Shown piece by piece: positions 1,492 through 63,095 of a stretch of DNA of 64,000 bases. The notes under the pieces are model-generated. The model worked only from the letters and a program-made list of their open reading frames with translations. It had not been told where the DNA came from and did no database searches. This DNA is from Stegostoma tigrinum (lineage: Eukaryota): NCBI RefSeq assembly GCF_030684315.1, contig NC_081354.1, forward strand, positions 16,610,226 through 16,674,225, in the 5' to 3' direction. Position 1 is the stretch's first letter; every line of letters begins with the position of its first letter. Both the position numbers and the translations under genes were made by a program.

Positions 1492-35468
<33,977 letters not shown>

Positions 35469-35872: not shown

Positions 35873-37038
35873 GAGACAGAAAGAGAGAGAGGGTGTTGTT
35901 TCTGGGATATAAATTGAATGCTAGAGATGTGATCCAAATATTATCTTTTATAGGTATTATTGTGGACTCATATATACTTATATCTTGAACAAAGAACACT
36001 TGGATAAGGAAAGGTTCTGTGTACAACAGCAATTATGTTGCACCTACTGGAGCAGAGAGCTTACACATGTCTGGAATTTCAGGGAGAGGTGGCGTGGCCC
36101 AGGTTGTGAGTGGAATCAGACTATTCTGTTTTTGAACTCAGTCAGAAGCAATTTGACCTGTGTGAAGATCAACAGCCTATTGCTCCGTCTTCTTTCTCTG
36201 CATCTCATCTCATCTCAGTGCGTCAGCTGTCAACCTGCCAAAAGTCACCTTTACCACGTTGGTGGATGAGTGGAAAGGATTAGTTGGAATCTACCCGCAC
36301 CATTTGAACAAAGACAATTCAGTCAGTACAACCATTCCAGAAAGACACATCAGTGCCTGCAGGTTGTGTATGTAGAATAACTTTGGAATCAGAAAACCAT
36401 TCGGGACAATTTATGATCTATAATGTCTTAATGAGCTGAACTATTACTTGGAAAAAGCACTTTAAAGTTAACACTGCAGAATGTTTCCTTTTTGTTGCCC
36501 CTCAGACTTGGATGTGTTTATGTGTATGTATTTTTTAACAGGAATATTTGTATCATCTAAAATGCTTGTCAATAGTCTGAAATTTTTTTGTTTGAACATG
36601 TTTAACTTTGGTACTAAAGCAGTTATTTGTTGTTGAGTGGAGAAACCTGGCTGACTTGTTCTTAATACTGAAACATACCTGATACAGTGTGAAACCTTTA
36701 TAGTTGGCCAGATTACCAACCTGGCTAAATTTAAATTTGTTGTGACAGGTGGAGGTATGGGATGAGAAAAGGATACGGTATACTCCAAACCTGATCATAC
36801 AATCTCACAGAAAAAGTGGGTATTCTTTCTGACTATAAATGCACAGAGGGAGTGGGAGGTGTCTGTGGTGTTGCAGATATATAGTTAATGGTTCATATGC
36901 TATCATATAAATTACTAATGATATGAAAGTTTGAAACAGGAAAATGGGATAAATGCAACTGAAGCACTTTGAACTCAAGTACAGTTAAAAGATAGGTATA
37001 CTGTTGCTTTGACAGGTTAACAGCTGGCAATTTGAAAT

Positions 37039-37258
37039 AGATAATAAAATGTGAGTCTGGATGAACACAGCAGGCCAAGCAGCATCTCAGGAGCACAAAA
37101 GCTGACGTTTCGGGCCTAGACCCTTCATCTGATGAAGGGTCTAGGCCCGAAACGTCAGCTTTTGTGCTCCTGAGATGCTGCTTGGCCTGCTGTGTTCATC
37201 CAGCCTCACATTTTATTATCTTGGAATCTCCAGCATCTGCAGTTCCCATTATCTCTGA
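37039..37258. mobile_element. Penelope-like short fold-back insertion (91-bp arms)
   Basis: 3' end of the same family. Centre at 37130; TSD GGCAATTTGAAAT at 37026-37038 and 37259-37271. Confidence 0.9.
37129..37156 (+). ncRNA. Minimal hammerhead ribozyme-like motif
   Basis: Identical 28-nt motif starting at the palindrome centre. Confidence 0.55.
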
Positions 37259-38118
37259 GGCAATTTGAAATGTTGGGCCTTGGTGATTGTCAGAATACTT
37301 AAGGCAAATGTTAGTTTTGAAGATTACCGCTTTTTTCATAAAATCAAAATAGAACAGATACAGCTGAAAAACAATGGATGGGCGTTCTTAACTGGCTGCA
37401 ATGCTTGCAGTAATACTTGTCTAGAGGGAGTTAGAGTTAATTTAACCTAAAAGTAAACAGGAAACGTCAGGTTATGCCAAAATGTAGATGCAGAGAGCTT
37501 AAAAATTCATGTGTGCATTGTTTGCTGATAGATGTGAATTACATTTCGGAACTGGGAGATTGTTAAATCATAAGAAACTTGCAAATTACAAGCAATTATG
37601 GCTTAGGATAAGTCCCAGGGAATTTGGCTCCATATCTTGGAAACATTTGGAGCTAAAAGGAACCACTGTTAACCCAAACAAGTTGGAAGTCAAGGGAAGG
37701 AAGCCCACAAATGAGTGGAGTATTAGATCATAATTTTTATGTAAACTCATGTGTACCTCATGTTTACTTGAATTCTGAAGTCTCAGTTGTATACGATTTA
37801 GGATCAAAATCTAACCTGCTCAATATTACTTTTATTTCACTATATTTTTGATTGTGGACTGCAATGAGTAAAGGACTGTTTTAAAAACCAAGGATTGTAG
37901 AAGGGATTGCTGCACTTTTTAAAGTAAGACACCAACACTTATTTTAAGTTACATTGTTGCTTTGTTTAACCAGTACAGGGAGTTGATTGCAGACACCTGG
38001 TACTATGGACTGTGTATAAGGTGAGATTCAGCTCGCGACAAGTGGCTGATTGGTCTGGTGACCAGTTGTCAATGATAAAGGACATCTGGCCCAGCAGCAT
38101 CTCAGGAGCACAAAAGCT

Positions 38119-38146
38119 GACGTTTCGGGCCTAGACCCTTCATCAG
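38119..38146 (-). ncRNA. Minimal hammerhead ribozyme-like motif
   Basis: Reverse complement of the same motif. Confidence 0.6.
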
Positions 38147-39033
38147 AGAGGGGAATGGGGTGAGGGTTCTGGAATAAATAGGGAGAGAGGGGGAGGTGGA
38201 CCGAAGATGGAGAGAAAAGATAGGTGGAGAGGTAGGGAGGGGATAGGTCAGTCTAGGGAAGACGGACAAGTCAAGGAGGTGGGATGAGGTTAGTAGGTAG
38301 GAGATGGAGGTGCGGCTTGGGGTGGGAAGAAGGGATGGGTGAGAGGAAGAACAGGTTAGGGAGGCAGAGACAGGTTGGACTGGTTTTGGGATGCACAGGG
38401 TGGAGGGGAAGAGCTGGGCTGGTTGTGTGGTGCAGTGGGGGGAGGGGACGAACTGGGCTGGTTTTGGGATGCGGTGGGGGAAGGGGAGATTTTGAAGCTG
38501 GTGAAGTCCACATTGATACCATTGGGCTGCAGGGTTCCCAAGCGGAATATGAGCTGCTGGGTATCAATGTGGAACTTCCACATTGATACCATTGATACCC
38601 AGCAACTCATATTCCGCTTGGGAACCCTGCAGCCCAATGGTATCAATGTGGACTTCACCAGCTTCAAAATCTCCCCTTCCCCCACCGCATCCCAAAACCA
38701 GCCCAGTTCGTCCCCTCCCCCCACTGCACCACACAACCAGCCCAGCTCTTCCCCTCCACCCACTGCAACCCAAAACCAGTCCAACCTGTCTCTGCCTCCC
38801 TAACCTGTTCTTCCTCTCACCCATCCCTTCCTCCCACCCCAAGCCGCACCTCCATCTCCTACCTACTAACCTCATCCCACCTCCTTGACCTGTCCGTCTT
38901 CCCTGGACTGACCTATCCCCTCCCTACCTCCCCACCTATACTCTCCTCTCCACCTATCTTCTTTTCTCTCCATCTTCGGTCCGCCTCCCCCTCTCTCCCT
39001 ATTTATTCCAGAACCCCCACCCCATCCCCCTCT

Positions 39034-39061
39034 CTGATGAAGGGTCTAGGCCCGAAACGTC
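39034..39061 (+). ncRNA. Minimal hammerhead ribozyme-like motif
   Basis: Identical 28-nt motif. Confidence 0.6.
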
Positions 39062-39618
39062 AGCTTTTGTGCTCCTGAGATGCTGCTGGGCCTGCTGTGT
39101 TCATCCAGCCTCACATTTTATTATCTTGGATTCTCCAGCATCTGCAGTTCCCATTATCACTGATAAAGGACATCTGCCTGCCAACAACTATGTAATTGGT
39201 TTGAAGATAGCTTTAGACATCCAGAATGGCTTTATCTGTCTCTCTGCGCAGTAAAAATGAATACAGGTACACCCAAACCTTAAAGAATTTCATTTTATTT
39301 TTTCCTCACCCATTAGTATAAGCTGTGGCTAGTAACCAGTAAGTAAGAGACTTTGCAATTTGTGAATCAGTCACTCTGTGCTTCCTGCAAGAAGGTGAAA
39401 GTGCCTGGAGGGGAGAGAATGGAGAACACTAAGTCCTGACAAGGAAAAGGATCATTTCATGGAACCCTGTGGACAAGAACCAAATACCTGTTTTCTCAGT
39501 TTTTCCCCTCCACCCATGATCCTTTTTGTCCAGCTATATCTGTCTGTATTTGCATGTCAGGGAGTTTTATAAGGGAATCAGAATTTTAACTAAAAAAAAA
39601 TCCCATAAGAGCCAAAAT

Positions 39619-39955
39619 GGGCAGCACAGTGGTTCAGTGGTTAGCCCTGCTGCTTCCCAGTGTCAGGGATCCGGGTTCAATTCCAACCTTGGGTGACTGT
39701 AACAATCCCCCTGATTCTGCGTGGGTTTCCTCCAGATGCTCTGGTTTCCTTCCACAGTTGAAAGATATGTAGGTTAGGTGAATTGGCCATGAGAAATTGA
39801 CTATGGTGTCCAGGGATGTGCAGGTTAGGTGGATTAGCCACGGCAAATGGAGGGTTATTGACATAGAGTGGGGGTGGATCTGGGTGAGATGCTCTTCAGA
39901 CGTTTGGTGTGGAATTGATGGGCTAAATGGCCTGCGTCCACACTGCAGGGATTCT
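39619..39955 (+). mobile_element. tRNA-derived SINE (same broad family as 47740-48064)
   Basis: A box GTGGTTCAGTGG, B box GGTTCAATTCC, body TCTGCGTGGGTTTCCTCC. Confidence 0.8.
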
Positions 39956-39964
39956 GTTTCAATT

Positions 39965-41240
39965 TCTGCTGGAGGTGCTGGAAATCTGAAACAAAAACAA
40001 AAAATTGCTGGTAAATCTCAGCAGGTCTGGCAGCATCTGTGGAGTGAAATCAGAGTTAATGTTTCAGGTTCAGTGGAGGCAAAGGTGCTGTGTGGCTGTG
40101 GGGGTGTGTTGGGAGTGAAGGAGGAGCTGACCAGGGAGTCTTTGAGGGATTAGTCCTTGCAGAAGAAGGGAGAGCAGGGGAATATGTGTCTGGAGGTAGC
40201 ATCCTGCTGGAGGTGGTGGAAATGGTGACTAATGATCCTCTGGATGTGGCTGTTGGTGGGATGATAGGTGAAGACAAAGGGAACGCTATCATTGTTGGGG
40301 GAGGGAGGAAAGGAGCTGAGGGCTGAAATGTGAGAGAAGAGTTGGACCCGGCTGAGGACTGTGTCAACTGTGGTGCTGGGGAATCCACATTTGACAAAGA
40401 AGGTGGCCATTTCGGAGGCCCCATTATTGAAGTTGGCATCATCAGGACAGCTGCAACAAAAATAGAGGTACTGGGAGAATGGAGTAAAGTCTTTACAGGA
40501 AGTAGGTGTGAGGATGTTTCATCAAGGTAACTGTGGAAATCATAGAGCCAAATAGCACAGAAACAGACCCTGCGGTCCAACTAGTCCATTATCCTAAAAC
40601 AGACCAATCACCCCTGCCTCCATTTTGCCCATAACCCTCCAATCCTTTCCTATTCATGTACTTATCTAAATGTTGTAACTGTAGCCGCAACCACCACTTC
40701 CTCTGGAAGTTCATTCCACACATGAACCACTTCCTCTGTAAGGGTTTGGGGTGGATATTGGTGGCCAGTCTATCCCCAGAAATGGGAACAGAGATGTTGA
40801 GGAATGGAGGGAGGAGTCAGAGATAGGCCAGGTGAAGGTGAGACTGGGGTGGAAATTGGAAGCAAAATGGATAAACCTTTCCAATTCCAGACAAGAGAGG
40901 GAAGTGACACCAATTACATCATTGATACACCAGTGAAAAGGTTGTGGGTGGTGGCCGGAGTTGGTTTGGAATAAGCATAGTTCCACGTACCCCACAAAGA
41001 AACAAGCAAAACTGGGTCCCAATCAGGTACCCCTGGCCTGCCCTTTGACCTGAAGAAAATCAGAGGAGTTAAGATGGAAGTCATTCAAGGCGAGGACAAG
41101 CTCAACAATGCTGAGGAGGGTGGCAGTTAATGGGGACAGCTCAGCACTTTCATTCAGGAAGAAGCAGAGAGCCTTGAGACCGTCCTTCTGGGGAATTAGA
41201 CGTGTAAAGGGATTGCATGTCCATGGTAAAATAGTTTTAA
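39965..41240 (-). mobile_element. Older, decayed Penelope-like element (RT and linker fragments), interrupted by a CR1 tail at about 40535-40736
   Basis: Fragments MGPSFACFFVGYVE, a decayed YIDD region (WCINDVIG), F.FASNFHPSL.FTW and VPFVFTYHP...IQRII..HF are homologous to the younger PLE protein. Confidence 0.75.
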
Positions 41241-42787
41241 CTGGTAGTATTATATGTCGTCAGTTCATACTTGTTTATACATCGCTAGAAACTGTTTAGT
41301 TGTAATAATTAGTAATTATTGTTGCATACAGAAACCTGGTCCATGCTTTCTGTTAGCCTGGATCTAAAAGGTAGGTGCATTGTGGAGTTTATACTTTGAT
41401 AAAATTTTTAACTTTTGTGAAGACTCTGAGACTAATGGAGCTTGATTTCCAGCGTGCTACCTTGGTGAGGTGTTACACTATTTAGTCATCAACACTTGTA
41501 TTTGTTTTGTACACGTTTGTTAATAATGATTTTTAGTTTTGAAGTTTCAGTTCCACCCTGAAATCTGTTGTTTATTTCCTTATCCCTGGTTCTTCTGTGG
41601 ATTCTAATATTTTTGTAATATTATCATCCTTTATGACGTTATGGTGTATTAATGGAAAGCCAATTGGATACTTCCATGGTTTCTACCACACAGGTAAAAA
41701 TGGAATCAAGCAACATCCATCCCTCCCTGTGCACAATGGACTAAGGGCATTTAAAGGAGTTCTTGTGTTCTATCCACTCAATGTTTGCAGCCAGACGAAG
41801 GATGAGGAAGAATAGAAATAGAAATAGTCAACAGTGACTTTGATTAGGGCATTTCAGTACTGTTGAAAGAAAAAAAGATTAGAGACTACAGAAATAGAAG
41901 AGTTTTGTGTGGTCATGTGAAGATAACAGATTTAGTGTGAGCAAGGGAGAATTGTTCTGGATGAGAAAGAACAATTTAGAGTATCTGCAAATATGAGAGA
42001 AACAAAGTGAGGGTAGGGATTATTTAGATAACGGTTTGATGTGAATAGAGTCAAGGGTATCATGAAGAAGAGCTTGGAAAGGAGAAAACTAGATAGAGGA
42101 TAATTCAGTTCTGAAACAGAGTCATATCACATTCAGTTATTGGAACTCAACTATTGGAATCCCAGACTTAATGTCAACTATGTACCAAATACAGTGGTTG
42201 TGCATTACAGTTCAGCCTGGCATCTGACTTGCTGTGGCAACATGCACATAGTATGTAACTTTGGATGGTGACGTTGGAGTCTCCAACAATCTGTGCATCC
42301 TGACCAGGAATGTCCCTTACACTTGTTGCATGCCACTAATGTGTGTTGAATGGTTGATACTCAAAATGGCCATGTTAAGAATGTACATTCCTCGGCTATG
42401 AAATGGGTGTGGGACCAGGGACTTCTGTCTCACAGCCACTGTCTCACAAGAATTTCTTTATACCCAGTGCTGGAGCAAACAGAGCCGGGCTGGGTGACCT
42501 GCTGTACTGCAAAAATTCTAATTTCTCCCTCTGTTAGATAATATCTAATAAATCAGTTCAGAGGTGTTACAACACACTTCTGAAGCATGCAACTTTTACC
42601 CAGTACCACTGTCCCCCTTTACCCTGAAACTCACCCACAATGTGTGTCAGGGTAGATGCAGTCTCAAAAGGGCCTGTTGTGTTGCAGTTAGTGTCCCTAC
42701 CTCTGAACCAGGAGGCCCGAAATTCAAGCCTGAGCCACTCCAGAAGTTTGCAACGACCGCTTTGAACAAGATAACTTTCATAACGTA

Positions 42788-42933
42788 TCAGAGATGACGG
42801 GAACTGCAGATGCTGGAGAATTCAAGGTAACAAAGTGTGGAGCTGGATGAACACAGCAGGCCAAGCAGCATCTTGTGCTCCTAAGATGCTGCTTGGCCTG
42901 CTGTGTTCATCCAGCTCCACACTTTGTTACCTT
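42788..42933. mobile_element. Penelope-like short fold-back insertion (51-bp arms, 8-nt loop)
   Basis: Slightly variant 3' end of the family; arms 42824-42874 and 42883-42933; no clear TSD. Confidence 0.85.
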
Positions 42934-42965
42934 TTCGAACGGAATTATTCTGAATAGGGATAATT

Positions 42966-43060
42966 CCAGCCAATCACAGCCTGGGTCGGTCCAGCCAATC
43001 AGAGTCATCACCTGTCCAACCAGTCAAAGCCGTGATCTGTCCAGCCAATCAGAGCCAGGA
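42966..43060 (+). promoter_or_regulatory. Array of CCAAT (NF-Y) boxes upstream of the THAP1-like ATG
   Basis: CCAGCCAATCA at 42966, 42991 and 43041, with a degenerate copy at 43016; exact 25-bp period. Confidence 0.75.
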
Positions 43061-43097
43061 TTGCTGTCAGGTGCATAGCGGGTGAAGGGCTGTGGAA

Positions 43098-43168
43098 ATG
43101 GTGCTTTCCTGTTCGGCTTATGGCTGTAAGAATCGGTATGATAAGGATCGGGGAGTTTCTTTCCATAG
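43098..43168 (+). CDS. THAP1-like exon 1 ([24 protein letters not shown])
   Basis: gaaATGG start and AG|gtacgg donor; compare human [24 protein letters not shown]. Missed by the ORF track. Confidence 0.92.
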
Positions 43169-46100
43169 GTACGGAGAGTCGACTGGCTATGCCTGTGTCT
43201 TTTTTTGTTTGCGAGGTTTCAGCACCACTTTAAAGCGATAAAAGTTCGACGCTAGCCGGCCTGGTTTTAGACGGGGCGCAGTGAAGAGCGGGGGGAAGGA
43301 AGAAGAAAGAAGAGGAGGAGAGTGGTGTACACAGCGAGGGATTTCAAAGGGGTGTGAAGGCAGAGAGATATTGGTTAGCGGTAGGCTGGGGTTGGGGAGA
43401 GTCGGTGAGGAAGGGATTACGAAGATGTTTCCGGACCGTTGATTGAAAAAGAGGAGGTGGTTGAGGTGTTTGGGAGTAGAAGGGGTTTCAGAAGAATGTT
43501 GTTTCAACGGTGTTCTCGAGGAAAGAGATTGCGGAAATACAGACTGTCTGTCACTTGTGAGAGCCGCCTGGTGTTCTAATTTTATGTTCAAGTGTGAAAT
43601 TGAGCTATTGTTTGACTCGTGTGCATCCTTGTTAAGTGCTGGCACTAGACTTCGGTCAGACTCCAGACACCAAAGCACAGACTAATAGTTCACTGCAGAA
43701 CTGAGGATGTGTACGTTATTTGATGGATTGCCTCTTGGATGTGATGTTAAGCACAAGCTGTGTCTTACCTTTTAAGTTGGATGCGAGATCCCAAGGTTAT
43801 GCTGATCTGATCAATATTTTAATCCTTAATCAAGACCCAAAACAAATGATTATCTTAACTTTCGTTTCATTTCTGTTTGGTGACCTTTTGTTGATTGCTT
43901 CATTTGCCACACTACAGTAGTGATTAGATTTTAAAAAGTACTTAACTGGCTGTGAGATAGCAAGGTGTCAAGCTGGATGAGCACAGCAAGTCAAGCAGCA
44001 TCAAAGGAGCAGAAAAACTGACGTTTTCAGCTTTCTGAAGCTCAGACCCGAAAGCTCTATATGCTGTTATCTCAGATTCTCCAACATCGGTAATTCCTAC
44101 TATCTCTTAAAAGGCTCTCAGTTGCTTTTTGATTGTGAAGGAGCAAGTTAAATGCAAACTCTATTGTGCTCTTCTTTCTTTACTTGTTTTTTGAAGAGGT
44201 GAACATGACTCTGGTCTCCATGCCATGAGAAGGAGGAAATAAATAATGGATTAGTTTAGTATCAGAGATAATGGGAACTGCAGATGCTGGAGATTCCAAG
44301 ATAATAAAATGTGAGGCTGGATGAACACAGCAGGCCAAGCAGCATCTCAGGAGCACAAAAGCTGACGTTTCGGGCCTAGACCCTTCATCAGAGAGGGGGA
44401 TGGGGGGAGGGAACTGGAATAAATAGGGAGAGAGGGGGAGGCGGACCGAAGATGGAGAGTAAAGAAGATAGGTGGAGAGGGTGTAGGTGGGGAGGTAGGG
44501 AGGGGATAGGTCAGTCCAGGGAAGACGGACAGGTCAAGGAGGTGGGATGAGGTTAGTAGGTAGCTGGGGGTGCGGCTTGGGGTGGGAGGAAGGGATGGGT
44601 GAGAGGAAGAACCGGTTAGGGAGGCAGAGACAGGTTGGACTGATTTTGGGATGCAGTGGGTGGGGGGGAAGAGCTGGGCTGGTTGTGTGGTGCAGTGGGG
44701 GGAGGGGATGAACTGGGCTGGTTTAGGGATGCAGTAGGGGAAGGGGAGATTTTGAAACTGGTGAAGTCCACATTGATACCATATGGCTGCAGGGTTCCCA
44801 GGCGGAATATGAGTTGCTGTTCCTGCAACCTTCGGGTGGCATCATTGTGGCAGTGCAGGAGGCCCATGATGGACATGTCATCAAGAGAATGGGAGGGGGA
44901 GTGGAAATGGTTTGCGACTGGGAGGTGCAGTTGTTTGTTGCGAACTGAGCGGAGGTGTTCTGCAAAGCGGTCCCCAAGCCTCCGCTTGGTTTCCCCAATG
45001 TAGAGGAAGCCGCACCGGGTACAGTGGATGCAGTATACCACATTGGCAGATGTGCAGGTGAACCTCTGCTTAATGTGGAATGTCATCTTGGGGCCTGGGA
45101 TGGGGGTGAGGGAGGAGGTGTGGGGACAAGTGTAGCATTTCCTGCGGTTGCAGGGGAAGGTGCCGGGTGTGGTGGGGTTGGAGGGCAGTGTGGAGCGAAC
45201 AAGGGAGTCACGGAGAGAGTGGTCTCTCCGGAAAGCAGACAGGGGAGGGGATGGAAAAATGTCTTGGGTGGTGGGGTCGGATTGTAAATGGCGGAAGTGT
45301 CGGAGGATAATGCGTTGTATCCGGAGGTTGGTAGGGTGGTGTGTGAGAACGAGGGGGATACAACTCCCCCTCGTTCTCACACACCACCCTACCAACCTCC
45401 GGATACAACGCATTATCCTCCGACACTTCCGCCATTTACAATCCGACCCCACCACCCAAGACATTTTTCCATCCCCTCCCCTGTCTGCTTTCCGGAGAGA
45501 CCACTCTCTCCGTGACTCCCTTGTTCGCTCCACACTGCCCTCCAACCCCACCACACCCGGCACCTTCCCCTGCAACCGCAGGAAATGCTACACTTGTCCC
45601 CACACCTCCTCCCTCACCCCCATCCCAGGCCCCAAGATGACATTCCACATTAAGCAGAGGTTCACCTGCACATCTGCCAATGTGGTATACTGCATCCACT
45701 GTACCCGGTGCGGCTTCCTCTACATTGGGGAAACCAAGCGGAGGCTTGGGGACCGCTTTGCAGAACACCTCCGCTCAGTTCGCAACAAACAACTGCACCT
45801 CCCAGTCGCAAACCATTTCCACTCCCCCTCCCATTCTCTTGATGACATGTCCATCATGGGCCTCCTGCACTGCCACAATGATGCCACCCGAAGGTTGCAG
45901 GAACAGCAACTCATATTCCGCCTGGGAACCCTGCAGCCATATGGTATCAATGTGGACTTCACCAGTTTCAAAATCTCCCCTTCCCCTACTGCATCCCTAA
46001 ACCAGCCCAGTTCATCCCCTCCCCCCACTGCACCCCACAACCAGCCCAGCTCTTCCCCCACCCACTGCATCCCAAAACCAGTCCAACCTGTCTCTGCCTC

Positions 46101-49100
46101 CCTAACCGGTTCTTCCTCTCACCCATCCCTTCCTCCCACCCATCCCTTCCTCCCACCCCAAGCCGCACCCCCATCTACCTACTAACCTCATCCCACCTCC
46201 TTGACCTGTCCGTCTTCCCTGGACTGACCTATCCCCTCCCTACCTCCCCACCTACACCCTCTCCACCTATCTTCTTTACTCTCCATCTTCGGTCCGCCTC
46301 CCCCTCTCTCCCTATTTATTCCAGTTCCCTCCCCCCATCCCCCTCTCTGATGAAGGGTCTAGGCCCGATTAGTTTAGTACTTCAGTTTTTTAAAAAAACA
46401 TTCAGAATAGCTGTGTATGTCTCATGTAAATAGAAAAAACTGATGGAAAGTTATTAGTCTAAAACACTTACATTTTCCACAGATGGTGCTTGACCTGCTG
46501 AATGTCTCTGGCATTTTTTCCAACATCAGTGGTATTAAGATATTTCAAAAGCTTAATTTAGAGCAAATAAAAATGTAGAGAAGTGTGAGACAGAGGTGGG
46601 AGGAACTGGTTTGCAGTTGAGTGGGAGAATGTGCAGAACTTCCTATGCATGAAGGTCCCCAAAAGTATAATAGAATAACTCCAACAAAAGCAAGCAAAAT
46701 AAATTTGAAAGCTGAGTATGATAATGCATCATAGATGCAGTATAATGTCAATATTTCTAAATTTGTCCATTTGGTAGGATAAAATAATGACTGACATAAT
46801 AAATTTTTTAATTGAGGATGGTGAATCTGTGGAATACTTTACCGCAGAAGATGCAATGGCCAAATCATTAATATATTTCAGAAAGAAATAGATTTCAAAG
46901 TGCTAAAGATTGCAGTTATGAAAAGAGTGGGAGTATGGCATTGAGAAAGAGGATCAGTCAGTGTCAGCACTATTAAACGGACAGTGATGATCCATCCCCA
47001 GCTCCCCCAGAGATTTCAATGTCCGAGGTATTTTTCCCAACATTGACTGGGATTCACTCAGTGTTAGCGGTCAAGATGGAGCAGAATTTGTAAGGTGTGT
47101 CCAGGAGGGTTTTCTAGAGCAGTATGTATGTAGTCCAACTCGGGAAGGGGCCATACTGGATCTGGTGCTGGGGAATGAACCTGGCCATGTGGTTGATATT
47201 ACAGTAGGGGACTAATTTGGAAATAGCGACCACAATTCTGTAAGTTTTACAATACTCATGGACAAGGATAGGAGTGGTCCTAAAGGAAGAGTACTAAACT
47301 GGGGGAAGGCCGACAATACCAAGATTTGGCGGGATCTGAGGAATGTAGATAGGGAGAAACTGTTTGAAGGTAAATCCACATTTGATATGTGGGAGGCTTT
47401 TACAGAGAGGTTGATTAGTGTGCAGGAGAGACATGTTCCTGTGAAAATGAGGAATAGAAAAAGCAAGATTAGGGAACCATGGATGACGGGTGAAATTGTG
47501 AGACTAGCCAAGAGAACAAACGGAAGCATACATGAGGTCTAGGCGACTGAAGACAGATGGAGCTTTGCAAGAATATCAGGAATGTACAGCGAATCTGAAA
47601 CGAGGGCTAAGAGAGGACATGTGATATTGCTGGCAAACATGGTTAAGGAAAATCCCAACGCCTTTTATTCATATATAAAGAGCAAGAGGGGAACTAGAGA
47701 AAGGATTGGCCCACGTAAGGACAAAGAAGGAAAGTTATGATTAGATTAGATTAGATTAGATTCCCTACAGTGTGGAAACAGGCCCTTCAGCCCAACAAGT
47801 CCACACAGCCCCTTGAAACATCCGACCCAGACCCAGGCCCATCCCCCTATAACCCACACACTCCTGAACACTACGGACAATTTAGCATGGCCAATCCACC
47901 CAGCCTGCACATCTTTGGACTGTGGGTGGAAACCAGAGCACCCGGAAGAAACCCACGCAGACACTGGGAGAATGTGCAAACTCCACACAGACAGTCGCCC
48001 GAGGCTAGAATTGAACCTGGGTCTCCGGTGCTGTGAGGCTGCAGTGCTAACCACTGAGCCACCCTCACATTCAATGGTGCTACCATCATTGAATCACACA
48101 CTATCAACATCCTGGGTGTTATCATTGACAATTCAACTGGGCTCACCACATAAACACAGTGGCTTCAAGAGCAGGCCAGAAGCTAGGAATACTATGGTAT
48201 CTATGTCACCTCCTGACCACTCAAAGCTTGTCCACCATCTAAGAACAAAGAACAAAGAAACCTACATCACAGAACAGGCCCTTCGGCCCTCCAAGCCTGG
48301 GCTGATCGAGATCCTCTGTCTAACCTGTCATCTATTTTCTAATGGTCTGTGTCCATTTGTTCCCTGCCCATCCATGTACCTGTCCAAATATATCTTAGAA
48401 GACGCTAATGTGTATGCGTCTACCACCTCCGCTGGCAACGCATTCCAGGCGTCCACCACCCTCTGTGTAAAGAACTTTCCATGCATATCTCCCTTAAACC
48501 TTCCTCCTCTCACTTGAACTCATGACCCCTAGTAATTGAATCCCCCACTCTGGGAAAAAGCTTTTTGCTATCCACCCTGTCTATACCCCTCATGATTTTG
48601 TAGACCTCAATCAGGTCCCCCTCAATCTCCATCTTTCTAATATGGAATTGTGGTCGCTATTTCCAAAGTAGTCCCCTACTATAGTATCAACTACCTGGAC
48701 GGATTCATTCCCCAGCACCAGGTCCACTATGGCCCCTTCGCAAATTGGATGACGTACATACTGCTCTAGAAAACCCTCCTGGACACACCTTACAGATTCT
48801 GCTCCGTCTTGACCCCTAACACTGAGTGAATCCCAGTCAATGTTGGGAAAATTAAAATCTCCCATCACCACCACCCTGTTTCTCCTACACCTTTCCATTA
48901 TCTGTTCACATGTTTGTGCCTCTATCTCATGCTCACTTTTGAGAGGCTTGTAGTACAGCTCCAACATTGTTACTGCATCCTTCCTATTTCTGAGATCTAC
49001 CCATATTGCCTCACTGCTTGAATCCTCCATGGGGCCCTCCTTCAGTGCAGCTGTGATATCGTCTTTGACCATTACTGCAACTCCTCCACCCTTTACCTCC

Positions 49101-52100
49101 CTCTGTATCCCACCTGAAGCATCGATATCCTGGGACAACTAGTTATGCCTGAGTCAGAGAAAATGGGTGACATTCTTAACGAGTACTTTGCATCGATATT
49201 CACCAAGGAGAGGGACATGACGGATGTTGAGGTTAGGGATAGATGTTTGCTTACTCTAGGTCAAGTTGACATAAGGAAGGAGGAAGTGTTAGGTATCCTA
49301 AAAGACTTTAAGTTGGACAAGTCCCCAGGTCCGGATTGGATCTATCCCAGGTTACTGAGGGAAGCGAGAGAGGAAATAGCCGGGGCCTTAACAGATATCT
49401 TTGCAGTGTCCTTAGACACGGGTGAAGTCCCAGAGGACTGGAGACTTGCTAATGTTGTCCCCTTGTTGAAGAAGGGTAGCAAGGATAATCCAGGTAATTA
49501 TTGACCAGTGAGCCTGACGTCAGTGGTAGGGAAGCTACTGGAGAAGACACTGAGGGATAGGATCTATTCCCATTTGGAAGAAAATGGGCTTATCAGTGAT
49601 AGGCAACATGGTTTTCTGCAGGGAAGGTCATGTCTTACCAACTTAATAGAATTCTTTGAGGACATGACAAAGTTGATTGATGAGGGAAAGGCTGTAGATG
49701 TCATATACATGGACTTCATTAAGGTGTTTGATAAGGTTCCCCATGGCAGGCTGATGGAGAAAGTGAAGTCACATGGGGTCCAGGGTGTGCTAGGTAGATG
49801 GATTAAAAAACTGGCTAGGCAACAGGAGACAGAGGGTAGTAGTAGAGGGATTTTCTCAAATTGGAGACCTGTGACCAGTGGTGTTCCACAGGGAGCTGTG
49901 CTGGGACCACTGTTGTTTGTGATATATGTAAATGATCTGGAGGAAGGTGTAGGTGGTCTGATCAGCAAGTTTGCTGATGACACTAAGATTGGTGGAGTAG
50001 CTGATAGTGAAGGGGACTGTCAGAGATTACAGCAGAGCATAGATAGACTGGAGAGTTGGGCAGATAAATGGCAGATGGACTTCAATCCGGGCAAATGCGA
50101 GATGATGCGTTTTGGAAGATCAAATTTAAAGGCGAACTATACAGTAAATGGAAAAGTCCTAGGGAACACAGAGATCTGGGTGTTCAGGTCCATTGTTCCC
50201 TGAAGGTGACAACGCAGGTCAATAGGGTGGTCAAAAAGGCATATGGCATGCTTTCCTTCATTGGGCGGGGTATTGAGTACAAGAGTTGGCAGGTCATGTT
50301 GCACTTGTATAGGATTTTGGTTCGGCCACATTTGGAGTACTTTGTGTTGTTCTGGTCGCCACGTTACCAAAAGGATGAGGATGCTTTGGAGAGGGTGCAG
50401 AGGAGGTTCACCAGGATGTTGCCTGGCATGGAGGGTGCTCGCTATGAAGAGAGGTTGAGTAGATTAGGAGTATTTTCATTAGAAAGACGGAGATTGAGGG
50501 GGGACCTGATTGAGGTCTACAAAATCATGAGGGGTATAGACAGGGTGGATAGCAAAAAGCTTTTTCCCCAGAGTGGGGGACTCAATTACTAGGGGTCATG
50601 AGTTCAAAGTGAGAGGAGGAAAGTTTAAGGGAGATATGCGTGGAAAGTTCTTTACACAGAGGGTGGTGGGTGCCTGGAATGCGTTGCCAGCGGAGGTGGT
50701 AGACGCAGACACGTTAGCGTCTTTTAAGATATATTTGGACAGGTACATGGGTGGGCAGGGAACAAATGGACACAGACCCTTAGAAAATAGATTACAGGTT
50801 AGACAGAGGGTCTTGATCGGCGCAAGCTTGGAGGGCCGAAGGGCCTGTTCCTGTGCTGTAGGTTTCTTTGTTCTTTGTATAAGTCTTCAGTCAATTTGAA
50901 TCACTTCATGTGATATAAAAACACTGGAGGCACTGGATATTGCAAAGGCTGTGGGCTTTGACAACCATAGCACTGAAGACGTGCTCTAGAACTTGCTGTG
51001 CCCACTACCTGCAAAGATGTTCGAGGACAGTTACAAAACCAGCATTTGCCCGATCAATGTGAAAAATCATCAAGTTACATCCTGTAATCGGGGAATGGTC
51101 TCCTCTGGTTGGAATTATGTGTATCACAGAGGAAGATGATTTGATTGAAGGTTAACCATCTCAGCCTTTGGACATCTCTGCAGGAGATCCTCAGTAGGTG
51201 TTCTTGGACCAGCCATCTTTAGCTGCTTCCTCAATGACCTTCTTTCCATCATAATGTCAGAAGTGAAGATGTCTACTGGACAGTGTTCAGCACCATTTGT
51301 CACAGATACCGAAGCAACAAGATGACAGAATGTTTGAGCTGACAAATGGCAATTACCATTTGTGTCGGGCACATCTTAAGGGTTGTCATTGTGCAGAAAC
51401 TGACCTGGGATTGGCTAGGTACAAATGAAATGGCTACAAAACTGGATCCAGGCTAGGAAGCCTGCACAGAGTAAATCATCTCCCAACTCCCGAAAGTCTG
51501 TCCATCATCTGCAAGGCACAAGTCAGGAATGTAGTGGCATACTCCCCACTTGGCTAGATGAGTGCAGCTCCAATAACACTCAAGTCTCATCATTCAACAT
51601 CCAGCAACCCACCTCTTGACTGACATTTACATACAAAGATCGATTGCATTCATTCTGACACAGTAAGAGCAGTGTGTGCTATCTACAAGGTGCACTGCAG
51701 AAATTCACCAAGCCTCCTTAGTACCTTTTTCTAATTTAAGACCACTACCGTGTTGATGGCTGTGGGATCACCAACACCTGCGAGTTCCTTCCAAGCCACT
51801 CGCCATCTTGACTTGGAAATGTATTGCCATTCCTTTGCTGTCGCTGAGTAAAGATCCTGGAATTCCCTTCTTATTGTTTGTCTCCTGACCTTCAGTTAGA
51901 TTATTGTAGTTCAAGAAGGCAGCTGCTTTCTCAAAGGCAACGAGAAGTAGGCAATAAATATTGGGCAAGCCAGACGCGCACACACACTTACCCACACACT
52001 AGGAATAAATTAAAAGGAAAAAGCAGATTACAAAATGACTGGATTAGTGAGATCATCAAGCCACCCTCAAATTGTGTTGATCTGTTTGTCATTGACTTCC

Positions 52101-55100
52101 CTCAGTCTTGTGTTGGCACATAAATCTGTTCCTCATGGTCCACAACTTCCTGTTGTAAAACTTGGATGCAGTATCCCTAGCACATCAGTTCTGTTCATCT
52201 CCATTTTAAGCAATACACAAAGTGGTTAATGGGTGAACTGAGTACTGGACCTACATTCCTTTCTGTCAACTTTCTCTGATATAAAGGTCCAGACCTGCCT
52301 TATGAGAACTGCTGATTTCTGAGAGAGACAGTGATGATCTGGCCGTTGGGCTAGAGCACAATCTCAGCAAAACTTACAAAGCAGTATTTGCTGATTAATC
52401 TTCCATTATGCTTTCCCTCCTGTGACTTTGTGAATGTGATCTTTCTCCTAGAAGCGTGTATATGGGCTTGAGATCGATATGACAGGTCGGCACAACATTG
52501 AGGGCCGAAGGGCCTGTACTGTGCTGTTATGTTCTATGTTCTATATCAGAATTGAGGGAAGGGGAAATGCGGCTTAAGTGGAAGAGCACAGATGTGATGT
52601 TACAACCCAGATTTGATTGAGATTCATGTTGACTACAATGATTTAATTTCCTCATCAAAAGTTTCCTTTTATGATACTTGCATCTTGTGATTAGGAAATG
52701 TACTCATCGTGGTCAACATGAATTAAGTAGTTAAGGCTATTGCAAATGTCTCAACAGTTCTTAGATCCTCTTACTGTTGAGTGGTCTGGTTAATCTTAGA
52801 GTGAAAGTTTCAGAATCATTTTCACATCATGCTTCCCTCACTGCAGATATGTCAGCATCATATGGCGACTTGAGGGCAGTGTTCTTGAATTCTTGTTCTG
52901 TAATAGCAACTGACTGAGAGAACTGGGTCATGTAACCCTCACTAAGTTTTTCTCACAACCAGAGGAGGAGATATTGCCTCAAGTTTGTCCTTTCTTAATA
53001 AATTCTCTGCGATTCATCAGTTCCGTTCAGTAACGTTGACTCATGTTGAACTACCTTTTGGATGAGATGATAAATTGATACACCATGCAAGCTTATTTCA
53101 TTGCCGTAAGACCCTGAGGAGCAGAAGCAGATCATTGAGTCAACTCCATCATTCAGTTAGTTCATGGCTGATTTGATAATCTTCAAGTCCACTTTCCTGC
53201 TTGAACCCTTAGCTCCATTATTGGTTTAAAAACCTGTCTATCTCAGTTTAGAATATACTTAACCATCCAGCTTATTCAGTCTTCGTAAGAAGTTTGCTCT
53301 GAGAAGAAATTCCTCCTTGTTTATCTTAAATGCGGGCTTCATATTTTAAGATAGTGTCCAGAACAGAGGACACACCCACGAGAGGAAACTTCCTTTCAGC
53401 ATCTATCCCATCAAGCCCCCAAAGAATCCTGTATGTCTCAACAAGGCTGCCTCTCATTCTTCTGAGCCTCACTGAGCAAGGGCCAACCTACCTTACCTTT
53501 TTTTAGAATACCAGTATGTTTTGCCTTAGAAAAGGGGACCAGACTGTTGACCGTATTCTAGTCATGGTTTAACTATTGGTTTTAACTAGATTTGCTGTTT
53601 CTAATTGTCCTGTTAAAATACTTCTCTAATGTCTTCCCTCTAACAATCTTTCTAAAATTTGATTAAAGGTTTCCCCTGAAACGACCAGAGCTGTGTAAGA
53701 AATGGTTGGCTGCAGTAAGGAGACGTAATTTTACACCCACCAAAAACAGCAATCTTTGCTCAGAACATTTCACGTTGGACTGCTTTAGAAAGAACTGTAA
53801 CAACAAAATACTGGAAGAAAATGCTGTGCCATCCATATTCTGCTTTACCCGACCAAATCAACAATCAAAGGTACTTTTTTTTATTCCAATACAATGTTAG
53901 TTGATTATTGTTTCTAACTTGCAATGTAGCACTGTTTTAGTTGCACACGATACAATCTATTAGATGCTCTCTTGCTTTATCCACAGTAGTTCTGTGAAGT
54001 ATAATGATGTATCATGTTAAATTGCCAACCTCAGACATTTGATACAAATAGCCATGAAATGAGTTATCAGTTAACCTGTTTTTGGTGTTTAATTGAAAAA
54101 TTGTTGGCCAGAGCACTGTAATAGTGTTCTACTCTTTGAATATTATCGTTCAGTATTTAACACTTAGCTGAATGATCAGAATAGAGAAATGAAGTCTTGT
54201 TTTAATAGCTGGGAATCTTGTGCCCTGCCAGTTCTTTGAACTTTTCCTGAATCTTTGAACTTAAACCCTTTAAACACATTTTTGTGAACGTATGTTGATA
54301 ACAGAATATTTATGACTTTAAAGAGCAACAGAAACATCATAGCTAACCAGATTTAAGATTGAGAAATAAATGGTGGAAGAAAGATGAATTGGAATAGTTG
54401 AATTTAAGAGGTATAGAAAGATAAACAATGAAAAGTTAGATTTAGTGAAAGTAGGGGAGAGGATAGAAAGTAAAAGTATTGACATTTATACTGGTGAGTA
54501 TATGTGCCTTTTAAGAGGGATTTGGTCTGTGCTGTTTCTTTTGTAGATGGGCGTTGCCAGTGGTGGTGGAATGGCTGCTTCAGAAGCTCTGGGTAAACAG
54601 CTTTGAGCTCCCAGAGTGTTTTTTTAAATTAAAAAAAAGAAGAATGAGTGACTAGAGTCAGGCTCTCAGACCGAGAGTTTTAGTTTTGCTTTTAGTTTAA
54701 GTTGGGGTTTGAAGCTGATAGCTACAGTTTGCTGTATCTGCTGCTAGATAAGAACACTGAAAGAAACTTCCTCTTGGGCTGGAGGAGATAGCAGGTGAGA
54801 AGAATGTGTTTTGCTGAATTTGTCTTTGCCAAGGGTGTATTTATGGGGTGCTGCTATGTTGGATCAATTGATGATGAGTAGTTAAATAATATCACTTTAC
54901 TCATTATTTTAACAGTTATACCAATTTTTTTGTTTGTATTTTAACTGTGTTGTAAGAAGTGTTTTTACTTAAACCTTGTAATGCTCCAGTCAAATCATTA
55001 CTGGAACACATTGCCTTACGCATGTCTTTTAGATAAGATAAAAGTTGGGCTTGAGGCTATCTCATTGATATATTTTGAGGTGGTTTGGTCATATCAATAA

Positions 55101-58100
55101 CAATACACTTGAGTTGTTCAATTTCTGGGCCAGAGGAGTTGGTTAATAATGACTTAGTCTACCCGGTTGATAATGAAATAACTATTTCATGGAGTTTTAA
55201 CTTTTTTCAATGGGAGAGGGAGTGGAAATGGTTTGCGACTGGGAGGTGCAGTTGTTTGTTGCGAACTGAGCGGAGGTGTTCTGCAAAGCGGTCTCCAAGC
55301 CTCCGCTTGGTTTCCCCAATGTAGAGGAAGCCACACCGGGTACAGTGGATGCAGTATACCACATTGGCAGATGTGCAGGTGAACCTCTGCTTAATGTGGT
55401 ATACTGCATCCACTGTACCCGGTGTGGCTTCCTCTACATTGGGGAAACCAAGCGGAGGCTTGGAGGCCGCTTCGCAGAACACCTCCGCTCAGTTCGCAAC
55501 AAACAACTGCACCTCCCAGTCGCAAACCATTTCCACTCCCCCTCCCATTCTTTAGATGACATGTCCATCATGGGCCTCCTGCAGTGCCACAATGATGCCA
55601 CCCGAAGGTTGCAGGAACAGCAACTCCTATTCCGCCTGGGAACCCTGCAGCCTAATGGTATCAATGTGGACTTCACCAGTTTCAAAATCTCCCCTTCCCC
55701 AACTGCATCCCTAAACCAGCCCAGTTCGTCCCCTCCCCCCACTGCACCACACAACCAGTCCAACCTGTCTCTGCCTCCCTAACCTGTTCTTCCTCTCACC
55801 CATCCCTTCCCCCCACCCCAAGCCGCACCCCCATCTACTTACTAACCTCATCCCACCTCCTTGACCTGTCAGTCTTCCCTGGACTGACCTATCCCCACCT
55901 ATACTCTCTCCACCTATCTTCTTTTCCCTCCATCTTCGGTCCGCCTCCCCCTCTCCCTATTTATTCCAGAACCCTCACCCCATCCCCCTCTCTGATGAAG
56001 GGTCTAGGCCCGAAACGTCAGCTTTTGTGCTCCTGAGATGCTGCTTGGCCTGCTGTGTTCCTCCAGCCTCACGTTTTATTATCTTTGATTCTCCAGCATC
56101 TGCAGTTCCTATTATCACTTATACACTTTGTACTGCATTTGCCAATCATTATGCAAATCACACTGAAACATCTTTACATCATTTTCACAGCTCACCCTCC
56201 CAGCCAGCTTTGACACCTGCAAATTTAGAGCTATTATGTTTTGTTCCCTTATACAAACCATTAATATATATTGTGCATAGCTGGGGTCCTAGCAATGATC
56301 CCTGTTGTAGTCAGTGCCTGCCATTCAGAAAAAGACTCCTTTTACTCCTCCTTTGTTTTCACTCTGCCAGCCAGTTTACTACACTGAAGCTCATGTGCTT
56401 TAATTTTACATACTTGGTCTTCTTGCAGCTGTTGAAATCCAAATAACCTACATCTACTATTGGCACCCCCTCATCAGTTTTCCTAATTACATTCTTAGAA
56501 CACAGAACATAGAAAAGTACAGCACAGTACAGGCCCTTCGGCCCACGATGTTGTGTCGTGGAATAATCCTAATCCCAAAATAAAGTAACCTAACCTACAT
56601 TCCCCTCAATTCACTGCTGTCCATGTGCATGTCCAGCAGTCGCTTAAATGTCACTAATGACTCCGCTTCCACGACTACCACTGGTAAACTATTCCATGCG
56701 CTCACAACTCTCTGGGTGAAGAACCTCCCTCTGACGTCTCCTCTATACCTTCTTCCGAACACTTTAAAACTATGACCTCTCATGGCAGTCAATCCTGCCC
56801 TGGGGAAAAGTCTCTGGCTATCGAAGCATTCCAGTTGATTTGTCAAACATGATTTTCCCTTTGTAAATCTAAGCTGGCTCTATCAGATACTGCAACTGTT
56901 TTCCAAATGCTAAGCTAGTAATTCTCTTATTCAGGCGGTCCCTGATTCAACAATGTATGACTTGCAAACTCTCGTACTTACAAGATCCTATACGAGAGTG
57001 TGTTAATTTAAAAAATCTGACATGCGAACGTTTCCCCATACTTATTAAGTTATTTTATAATGCTCCATATTGTGTTCTAAGTTCTGAATGTTGGAAGCCA
57101 TGCCTTTAGCTAATTATATCTCTTTAAAGTCGAAAAGGGGTGATTGCCTCATCTGTAGCTGCTTGTATCTCTTTTGATCACTCTTTTTGAATTGAGATTA
57201 TGTTAAGGCAATGGCCTAGCGGTATTCTTGCCAGACTGTGAATCCAGAGCTCCAGGTAACATTCCGGGAACCTGGGTTTGAATCCTGCCATGGCAGATGG
57301 TGGAATTTGAATTCAATAAGAATCTGCAATTAAGAGCCTAATGGTGGCCGTGAATCCATTGTCGATTGTTGGAAAAACTCATCTGGTTCACTAATGACCT
57401 TTTTAGGGAAGGAAACTGCCATCCTTACCTGGTCTGGCCTACAAGTGACTCCAGACTCTCAGCAATGTGGTCGACTATGACTATGAACTGCCCTCTGGGC
57501 AATTAGGGATGGGCAATAAATGCTGCCTGGCCAGTAATGTCTTGTCCCATGAATGAATTTTTTAAAAAAAAGCTGTTCCAGTGTTCACTCACTTCCACAA
57601 CACTTAAAGCCTTCATTATGCATGCACACATTCTTTATGATGCATCAGGATTTGATGCAACAGAACAATGCAGAAATTAAACATTCTCATTCTTTGATTA
57701 AAATCTGTTGATGTGGTTGAACAGAAAAGCCAAACCTTGAATTCAAATGCTTACATTTGGGTTAGATGACACATGCCATAAAATGTGCTGTTAATTGTAT
57801 GTTAACTTGTGTGGCATGCTATATTTTAATATTTTGAAGTCTGGCTGGATGAGAAGTTTGTGGTTTGAGAAGTTTACTGTAGTAGATTTATTACAAAAAT
57901 GACTCCAACTTTAGATTTACTGTCATCATATATTAAATATTCCAAGCTGTTAATCTAATAATCATTTTGTATTGATAGAAATTAGAAATACCAATGACAA
58001 GTAACCAACCTAATGCAGAAGAAATAACAGAGGACACCGCACTGAAACAAGCACATGGTTTGCTAACTGTTTATGATCACAGCTATAGTGTCGGTGATGC

Positions 58101-61600: not shown

Positions 61601-62759
61601 TGACTGTCTTTGCTGTGCTTGCTCTGAACACCGGATTCAAGTCCCATTCCAGAGCTTGATGACCACAGAAGGTGCATTTGTAATGTGACTGAATGTGGAA
61701 AAAATTGCAGGTTGATAATCCAGTATAATCTATATCAGCTGGTAACAGTTGATCAACCAGAATTGTTGCAGTGACATTCCTTGAACTATAGTATCTAGCA
61801 TGAGGCTGGTGAGCTGTTTCAGGAAGACCTAGCCTTGGAAACAGCATTTGCTGAAGAAGGTTCACTGGACTCAATGTTAATTCTGCTTTCTCACCACAGA
61901 TGCTGCCAGACCTGCTGAGTTTTTCCAGCAATGTCTGCTTTCACGAAGCATATTCTTTGTCTCAAACCACTAGTTGTCAGAACAGGATGGAAGAAAATAG
62001 AAATGACCCATTTCCATTAGCTGAGCAGGAAAAATTACAGCATCAATTTTTCCCAGTACAGATGTGGTTATTTTGCCCATCATGGTTACCTTGTCTAGCG
62101 CAGTGAGCAATTCAACCAATATCTTTTCCTACACTTTTCCCAAAACCCTGCATTTCTTCCTTTTCGGAAAGTAATCCAAATTCCCCCTTGGCTTTCAGAA
62201 GAGCCAGTTGCAAGTGTACCGGTTCCCCGGGTTCCTAATATTATGCACGATCAAAATGTAGTTGTTATTATGCAATGAATATTCTGGTCATGAAGGACTA
62301 GTGTCTTTTGTGTACATACTATTCAACATTGTGTCAACCAGTAGGCCCAACAGAAAGCAAAGATAGAAGAGTGAGGGTAGTAAACTGTATCAAACAACGC
62401 AGTACCACATTGAGACAGGCTACAAATACCACAAGGTAACAGGAGTAAGTCATCTGGAAAAATACTAAACAAGCAGGCAGCTGATTCTAAATCTTTATCT
62501 GTTCGAGCCCGAAAACATTTATCTGCTCGTATCCGCCGTTGCCCTTTTCCCAATTTTCGTGAAATCCGTGTCTTCTCATTCTCAATCTTTCCACCAATAG
62601 AAACAAACTCTCAATTTTCACTTTCCACATTCCTCGCGATTTCGAAAATCTCCAATAATTTCAGTCTTAAACGTTTTCGGTGTGGGGAAAAGACAGAACT
62701 AGTCCCAAATGTAAAAGAACGAACTGCGGTGCCGGATATCGCAAACAAACAACAACAAC

Positions 62760-63095
62760 AACAGAAGTTTGCTGGAGAACCTCAGCAGGGCTGGGCAGTG
62801 TCTGCGCCGAAAGAACAAAGCTAACGTTTCGAGTCCCAGTTCTGAAGTACGGTCTGCTGGAATCGAAACGTTAATGGTGTTATCACAAATGCTGCCAAAT
62901 CTGCTGGAAATAATCCCACACTTCACCAAAACATCCCCGACATGAAGGCAGAAAACGTTTGAGCCAGAGAAGTAGAACTCCGAAAGATACAAAAAGGTTT
63001 AAAAAAATTGCTGGAAAAGCTCAGCAGGGTATGGCAGTATCGTGGAGAGAAATCAGAGTGAACGTTTCGGGTCGAGTCACCCTTCTGCAGAACTC
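62760..63095. mobile_element. Cluster of decayed PLE 3'-end fragments (third family), partly fold-back
   Basis: TAACGTTTCGA...TCGAAACGTTA arms at about 62822-62873. A minus-strand CTGCAGAAGGGTGACTCGACCCGAAACGTT lies at 63061-63090. Related copies at 61851-61940 and 39975-40075. Confidence 0.6.

Follow-up and report, generated by a model that had tools for sequence, protein, structure and literature searches.

Head-to-head insertions of a Neptune-type Penelope-like element in Stegostoma tigrinum, and the pairing of their tailed and tail-less ends

How does a retroelement come to lie in a genome as a palindrome, with two copies of its 3' end facing outwards? The question is raised by a 64,000-nucleotide stretch of the Stegostoma tigrinum genome (the window), in which the original prediction placed five insertions of one Penelope-like element (PLE) family. 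Comparison of the window with itself, and alignment of the arms, bore out all five at the places given (A, 37039-37258; B, 38089-39163; C, 42788-42933; D, 44262-46368; E, 55209-56121), and in each the left-hand arm is antisense and the right-hand arm sense, so that the 3' ends point outwards (Table 1). These palindromes span 0.2-2 kb, with 695 nt of arm being 100% complementary in D. A sixth fold-back, F, older and decayed, lies among the five (43955-44107). Introns of a THAP-domain gene contain D and E.

Table 1. Parts of the fold-back insertions and their positions in the window (distances with a minus sign are counted from the element's 3' end).
Insertion	Feature	Positions	Strand	Basis
A	Left target-site duplication, 13 bp	37026..37038	+	direct-repeat search
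A	Short arm; outer end at tail boundary (-38)	37039..37129	-	self-comparison, arm alignment
A	Long arm, to 3' tail end; fold point at hammerhead motif 5' edge; 1-nt loop	37131..37258	+	arm alignment
A	Right target-site duplication	37259..37271	+	direct-repeat search
B	Left direct repeat of 16 bp (13 bp once the TGA common to the element end is discounted)	38073..38088	+	direct-repeat search
B	Short arm; outer end inside the element (about -75); holds 10 of 11 arm differences and two small deletions	38089..38559	-	arm alignment
B	Centre; non-native insert with source ~40 nt inside arm, mirrored on both sides, 9-nt repeat	38560..38599	.	centre analysis
B	Long arm, to 3' end	38600..39163	+	self-comparison, arm alignment
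B	Putative minimal hammerhead-like core (CUGAUGA, stem II, GAAAC-GUC)	39034..39061	+	read from sequence
B	Right direct repeat	39161..39176	+	direct-repeat search
C	Long arm from 3' end; subfamily ~11% from D	42788..42873	-	arm alignment
C	Short arm; start 10 nt further 5' than long arm, end at tail boundary (-37)	42873..42933	+	arm alignment
F	Decayed fold-back; minus arm (43955-44026) to tail boundary, plus arm to tail end	43955..44107	.	self-comparison
D	Left target-site duplication, 13 bp	44249..44261	+	direct-repeat search
D	Long arm, 1098 nt, from 3' end into coding region	44262..45359	-	self-comparison, arm alignment
D	Centre; 5-nt templated insert continuing a 4-nt match ~40 nt back in the same arm	45360..45364	+	centre analysis
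D	Short arm; end inside hammerhead core (-109), 2 nt shared with duplication	45365..46368	+	arm alignment
D	C-terminal part of PLE ORF: CX4CxxC linker plus GIY-YIG endonuclease with CCHH; repeated in mirror image on minus arm	45367..45972	+	translation, domain search
D	Right target-site duplication	46367..46379	+	direct-repeat search
E	Short arm; internal outer end (-627), 27-nt spacer, 15 nt further 5' than long arm	55209..55399	-	arm alignment
E	Long arm, to 3' end; 7-nt central microhomology at 55393-55399	55393..56121	+	arm alignment

The palindromic architecture is itself known for PLEs, and the window provides a well-formed example. Arkhipova et al. 2013 describe head-to-head inverted pLTRs that share one target-site duplication (TSD) and carry a tail on one side only, and they propose that these arise when an antisense template primes itself (PMC3846280). 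Inverted pLTRs count among the standard traits of PLEs in Goubert et al. (PMC8969392), and Craig et al. 2021 call an inverted 5'-truncated copy frequent, naming the origin of these inverted repeats and of the one-sided tails as an open question (PMC8557442). Hence the notion that this family builds palindromes as it integrates was not novel, as both layout and self-priming had been published (PMC3846280 and PMC8557442).

That the element is Penelope-like is supported by the protein encoded in D, which has a CX4CxxC linker (CNRRKCYTC) plus, at the C-terminus, a GIY-YIG domain with CCHH. The match to PF01541 (E 4.7e-4, 20.8 bits) lies just below the 22.6 cut-off; in the GIY-YIG alignment C112 and C115 are invariant, H134 and H150 near-invariant, and two Cys lie between GIY and YIG. 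The telomerase-like reverse transcriptase (RT) has been truncated away in the window. Shark proteins assigned by name to Stegostoma and Rhincodon share 94% and 92% identity with the D protein and extend into an RT core (YIDD), and a 43% identical relative matches PF00078 (E 3e-11). According to Craig et al., a CX2-5CxxC linker between RT and endonuclease (EN) is a Neptune trait, absent in Penelope and Poseidon (PMC8557442). The linker and GIY-YIG features of the shark family match those given there, and by these protein features it is a Neptune-clade PLE, an assignment in which Nematis and Hydra are not set apart by phylogeny.

Also shared with Neptune-clade elements, as that source presents them (PMC8557442), are a 30-40-bp tail at one end, an inverted 5'-truncated copy at the 5' end and, putatively, a pLTR with a hammerhead-like motif: within the window 5' truncation occurs together with inverted copies, and A, C and F have short arms that fall 37-38 nt short of the 3' end. 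The window differs from that description in holding neither a full-length copy nor a partial tandem, in having all six copies inverted, and in duplications that cluster near 13 bp rather than varying in length. Putative hammerhead core boxes lie in the last 131 nt, and the motif was also recognised by eye in A, D and E. These boxes fit the minimal motif that Cervera and de la Pena give for the hammerhead (PMC4209133); an Rfam search returned no hammerhead match, and the fold is not significant (z -0.36). Rfam microRNA matches all fell below the gathering score, with hairpins only sub-threshold. A MITE or microRNA hairpin was ruled out, the arms being retroelement 3' ends with variable fold points and no curated microRNA match.

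The argument that each palindrome represents one integration event depends chiefly on the target duplications. Direct repeats flank the whole palindrome in A (13 bp, 37026/37259), in D (13 bp, 44249/46367, the first 2 nt shared with the element) and in B (38073/39161), where the repeat measures 16 bp, or 13 bp when its leading TGA is assigned to the element. This bears out the original statement that three of the five carry a TSD of about 13 bp around the entire unit. Repeats of at least 13 nt arose by chance in 3/5000 random window pairs. A single duplication per unit indicates a single event, as it does in a second family introduced below, where direct repeats of at least 11 nt surround 18/31 inverted copies, compared with 6/300 mismatched pairs. 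An origin of the palindromes in the integration mechanism is supported as well. C and E have no flanking direct repeat, even with 1-2 mismatches permitted. Six models of empty sites gave no spanning match among the loci collected; a 138-nt contig from a relative (X15 record 12) extends over 44121-44261 and breaks off precisely where the D duplication ends, too short to reach the far side.

Similarity between arms constitutes weaker evidence than the duplications, as conversion could also homogenise the arms of a palindrome. Copies diverge from one another by 4-6% among B, D and E, and by 10-17% for C. The arms had been expected to resemble each other more than they resemble other copies, which was clear for D (3/987 differences between arms vs 23/558, p 4e-8) and C (0/51 vs 10/87, p 0.013). 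It was partly so for B, whose 11/468 differences gave p 0.012 against the comparison of its short arm with D, and p 0.12 against that of its long arm with D. The expectation failed for A and E: the arms of A differ at 2/92 positions, yet its long arm equals D at 129/129, and those of E differ at 5/166, yet its short arm differs from D at 3/181. Private columns, in which the arms agree but differ from all of at least two other insertions, number 9 in B, 10 in D, 6 in C and 0 in A, while the 2 shared by the arms of E come from comparison with D only. Both of the private variants originally singled out, at 38-39 kb and 44-46 kb, are real in this sense.

The ends and centres of the arms are more informative about mechanism. 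Short arms end at -38 in A, -37 in C and about -38 in F; the outer ends are internal in B (about -75), D (-109) and E (-627). The 5' ends of paired arms agree within 15 nt in all five insertions, though the fold points span -87 to -1098 and the arms overlap by 51-987 nt. The short arm does largely duplicate the long arm, as had been proposed, but not wholly in C and E, where it reaches 10 and 15 nt further 5'. In these two neither arm is contained in the other, making it impossible for them to have formed by fold-back of the tailed arm alone. Their centres have microhomologies of 2 and 7 nt, with the spacer belonging to the short arm, and that of E forms a 7-bp stem with a 27-nt loop. A has a 1-nt loop, and B has a non-native insert mirrored on both sides, which needs a real fold-back step.

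A second Neptune family, 36-67% identical to the shark family in its best segment, allowed these patterns to be counted. DNA-pattern scans for the shark family across metagenome, viral and genome contigs returned no match, and a protein scan of viral contigs returned no relative. A protein search yielded 15 loci from prokaryote assemblies, of which 13 are animal-like contigs carrying the second family, while two (L012 and L015) were left out as unrelated at the DNA level; loci added by a pLTR motif search brought the set to 30 distinct contigs, 4 of them cut by the contig end. By hand count, 14/26 complete copies have an inverted arm and 12/26 are solo. A further 121 metagenome loci comprise 50 head-to-head, 0 tail-to-tail and 71 single copies; some loci of either set may be orthologous copies from related samples. 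Inverted copies make up 31/65 of the loci clear of contig edges (48%, CI 35-60%), a fraction that short-read assembly probably undercounts.

Of these 31 inverted copies, 25 have just one arm that extends to the tail end, 1 has two such arms and 5 have none, where independence would give 15, 6 and 10 respectively (p 4e-4). The sole both-tailed case (L091) is a three-piece unit whose outer ends are one tail and one tail-less end. In 21 of the 25, the other arm ends at -45 to -72, and A, C and F of the window obey the same rule. This pairing of ends is a new and countable rule, common to the shark family and a distant one, and together with non-overlapping arms under one duplication it makes the mechanism of integration, left as a question for PLEs, testable. 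Of the inverted copies, 22/31 have the 5' ends of both arms close to the hammerhead motif's 5' edge, where 27/34 solo 5' ends are found as well. Duplications of 12-13 bp occur in L004, L010, L017, L023, L027, L031 and L035, and templated centre inserts are also found in L023 and L028. The arms are not nested in L004, L007, L013, L020, L028, L037 and 7/25 metagenome copies (>15 nt). They do not overlap at all in L004, where a 29-nt tail piece and a 1.37-kb tail-less arm share one 13-bp duplication, in L163, again under one duplication, or in L056 and L037.

One tailed and one tail-less end per unit, combined with non-overlapping arms, points to priming from both target ends. Hence the account we favour, at slightly better than an even chance, is that both ends of a staggered cut of about 13 nt prime reverse transcription, producing the palindrome in one event. 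Firstly, one target end would prime at the tail end of the RNA, while its partner would prime either at the tail boundary, 37-38 nt inside, or deeper in the element, where 1-2 nt match the target. Secondly, the two cDNAs, of the same polarity and presumed to copy a single RNA, would come to a halt at, or close to, a common 5' position, most frequently the hammerhead motif's 5' edge. Thirdly, their free ends would be joined by short microhomology, or one would fold back and anneal to the other, generating templated inserts. Fourthly, fill-in would complete a palindrome in which one arm carries the tail and the other lacks it, within a single duplication. Priming by one end only would give a plain solo copy. 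The coupling of the fold points could be explained by both cDNAs running to the same RNA end or stalling, or by a brief fold-back making one complementary to the other; the brief fold-back route also fits B. Of the two routes originally offered, snap-back alone cannot give non-nested or non-overlapping arms, and priming on two independent templates leaves fold points within 15 nt unexplained, such that two-end priming with a coupled centre fits better.

A biochemical precedent is the Anolis Poseidon protein PAc, a predicted dimer that in vitro nicks and extends both strands, at AT-rich targets, with RT starting at two sites that delimit the tail (Frangieh et al. 2024, PMC11167929). Its support is limited by its being of the Poseidon rather than the Neptune clade, and inverted insertions and target duplications are not discussed there.

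Two-end priming is deduced from finished insertions rather than intermediates, which weighs against it, as does the lack of a duplication around C and E. Asymmetric central deletion after insertion, an established behaviour of long palindromes, can also yield non-nested arms, and if the endonuclease trimmed a hairpin at the tail boundary, each unit would likewise keep one tail. The predicted bias, that the inner-primed arm should extend further 5', was seen in a hand count of the window and MAG loci (10 vs 2, p 0.04); it was not replicated in the larger set at a 5-nt threshold (10 vs 7, p 0.63), where a post-hoc cut-off of 15 nt gave 7 vs 1 (p 0.07). B poses two further difficulties, as its mirrored insert demands a genuine fold-back and the 10-to-1 excess of changes on its short arm (p 0.012) misfits one evenly aged template.

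Two-end priming has a relative in L1 twin priming, in which, as Ostertag and Kazazian reportedly set out in 2001, both target ends prime on the RNA and the products are joined by microhomology under one TSD. There the second primer uses variable internal sites and the arms barely overlap. L004 and L163 resemble twin-primed products, whereas the palindromes generally have their second start close to the 3' end, at a fixed site, with arms that usually overlap almost fully. An L1-type inversion with little arm overlap was rejected for the window, being seen only in a minority of the second family (L004, L037, L056 and L163). The literature covered contained no two-end priming model for PLE inversions, though one may be in print in the 2005 and 2006 reviews, and no shark PLE palindromes; nor was PLE palindrome formation treated in the available part of a 2026 retrozyme preprint (10.64898/2026.07.22.740005).

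A more ambitious reading, which we put forward tentatively and rate at somewhat below an even chance, is that EN+ PLEs have a dedicated dual-end reaction, conserved from sharks to invertebrates. In this reaction a dimer with a fixed stagger of about 13 nt would copy one RNA from two start sites, the tail would reflect the spacing of the active sites, and a palindrome would be a default outcome in about half of events.

The most serious competitor, though an unlikely one, is that an antisense strand, either RNA or free cDNA, folds at its 3' end and is elongated as far as the tail end; the endonuclease would then cut this self-primed hairpin back to the tail boundary before its insertion. This would account for the coupled fold points, the short-arm spacers of C and E, the stem and loop of E and the mirrored insert of B. 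It also has published precedent, as self-priming on antisense RNA was proposed by Arkhipova et al. (PMC3846280), and the tail was ascribed to EN-mediated resolution by Craig et al. (PMC8557442). However, L004 and L163 would need a 100-1400-nt loop re-priming inside the tail, the tail-less ends coincide with an RT start site mapped in vitro (PMC11167929), and a hairpin offers no direct route to a constant 12-13-bp duplication. The Penelope of Adineta vaga, for which that model was made, resembles the window in its inverted pLTRs, one TSD, tail on one arm and palindromic junction, but differs in its TSDs of 8-10 bp, low copy number and antisense template, and non-overlapping arms are not addressed in the part of the source available (PMC3846280).

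Rather improbable is the snapping back of a single target-primed cDNA, with the copied arm then joined to the other target end by microhomology. The symmetric centres of A, B and D, the mirrored non-native junction of B, and the internal short-arm ends with a 1-2 nt match in B and D would all be expected of it. Snap-back before 5' joining is documented for R2 insertions by Zhang et al. 2024 (PMC11371274), where self-priming by the cDNA 3' end similarly leaves antisense sequence at the 5' junction; those cases are, however, a minority junction class, singly primed and with no fixed second 3' end. Snap-back needs the second arm to be nested in the first, contrary to C, E and the non-nested copies of the second family, and it leaves the tail-boundary position of the second arm in 21/25 unexplained. 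As the sole route it is already contradicted, unless central deletions are common.

Inverted duplication of DNA after insertion, or homogenisation of two separate insertions by gene conversion, is very improbable. It would suit the arms of A and E being no closer than other copies, and an inverted repeat that extends 686 nt into the flank of L001. Yet the pair of arms lies within a single duplication in A, B and D and in 18 of the second family's inverted copies, and arms stop at element-defined ends, with head-to-head units found 50 times and tail-to-tail units never. An assembly or library fold-back artefact can practically be dismissed, even though the contig check reached the left flank and long arm of D and not the centres or right junctions, as arms differ by substitutions and indels, have element-specific ends and lie within target duplications, the left junction of D is present in contigs of two samples, and unrelated assemblies have the same layout.

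If two-end priming is true, it would be a distinct route of retrotransposon integration, in which the reaction writes both junctions itself. If the dual-end reading is true, there would be of the order of 1e5 near-perfect hairpins in the shark lineage (extrapolated from five in 64 kb), representing a major source of intronic double-stranded RNA and unstable DNA. A very abundant family landing as palindromes of the size seen here would supply long double-stranded RNA; in a lizard, Penelope is reported as the heavily A-to-I edited LINE-class repeat (PMC5625713).

The shark family is apparently very abundant. Contigs from two conspecific samples and from two relatives were aligned to the left flank and long arm of D only, and contig depth over the pLTR was about 1e6 times the single-copy depth, a ratio that is not a copy number. 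Contigs of two samples cross the left junction of D with 0 differences. Loose ends with long, heterogeneous flanks occur at the tail end in at least 653 and at least 668 contigs (in the copy of F), and in at least 455 contigs of one run at 44259; they recur at the tail boundary (44299, -38; at least 613 and at least 615) and at the 5' edge of the pLTR (44392; at least 679 and at least 710), a position that is also the fold point of A. Same-strand go-back joints link 44386-44391 to 44263-44267. The loose ends at 44392 represent 5' ends joined directly to non-element DNA, and many copies are therefore not fold-backs. Hence the claim that all insertions of the family are fold-backs fails outside the window, in these contigs as in the second family, where about half are inverted. 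The six of six inverted copies give a one-sided lower bound of 61%, for a window chosen for this pattern, while its seven older pLTR relics (65-75% identical) comprise two inverted and five solo copies.

Five head-to-head palindromic insertions of the Penelope-like family (A, B, C, D and E) and one older, decayed fold-back (F) share the window with a THAP-domain gene, which we take to be THAP1-like, and whose second exon was recognised in a domain search (PF05485, E 9e-13). Its first intron holds both D and F, and its second intron holds E, such that the pre-mRNA could form a near-perfect hairpin of 1 kb. C lies approximately 165 nt 5' of the start codon of this gene, with three CCAAT boxes adjacent.

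Features of the window, with relics of the pLTR (the 131-nt 3' segment of the element)
Feature	Window position	Remarks
Head-to-head pLTR relic	12364-12603	related family; older
Head-to-head pLTR relic	62727-62906	related family; older
Solo pLTR relics	11114, 39960, 46476, 61848, 63000	related families; older
THAP-domain gene	43098-43169, 53670-53864, about 57979-58310	PF05485 match on the second exon
Inverted LINE pieces	48245-48641 vs 50478-50878	94.5%
Inverted LINE pieces	47029-47238 vs 48645-48854	90%

F may predate the split of the species, as a contig from a relative (X15 record 11, window 43865-43968) extends 14 nt into it at the orthologous place. Within B, 10 of the 11 differences between arms, and both deletions, fall on the short arm (window 38089-38559; p 0.012), with the majority of these differences outside CpG. 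This excess may reflect error-prone synthesis of that arm, or a second template. Among the contig joints listed, the strongest-supported pair a tail end on one strand with a tail-less end on the other (window 44259-44267 to 44296-44301), and are present in both same-species samples, at around one locus per contig. These joints may represent either neighbouring palindromes placed face to face over unique DNA, or units that abut directly.

The second, distant Neptune family occurs on many contigs of two records filed as bacterial MAGs, CBDDTI01 and CBDAUV01 (loci L001-L011, L013, L014 and L016-L042). Hence both records include host DNA, this being an animal retrotransposon. One palindromic and one solo copy (L017 2881-3142 and L034 2937-3039) occupy an almost identical site within a single target sequence that is itself repeated, which hints that the element prefers certain targets or that an arm has been lost. 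L001 (128-3260) has two tail-less arms, and its inverted repeat continues 686 nt into shared flank; this locus arose differently from the other fold-backs.

Inverted pieces were also observed within a presumably CR1-like LINE region (window 47029-50878), with their 3' ends pointing outward. The open frame that runs from about window 63452 presumably resembles the first part of a transcription factor of the Jun family.
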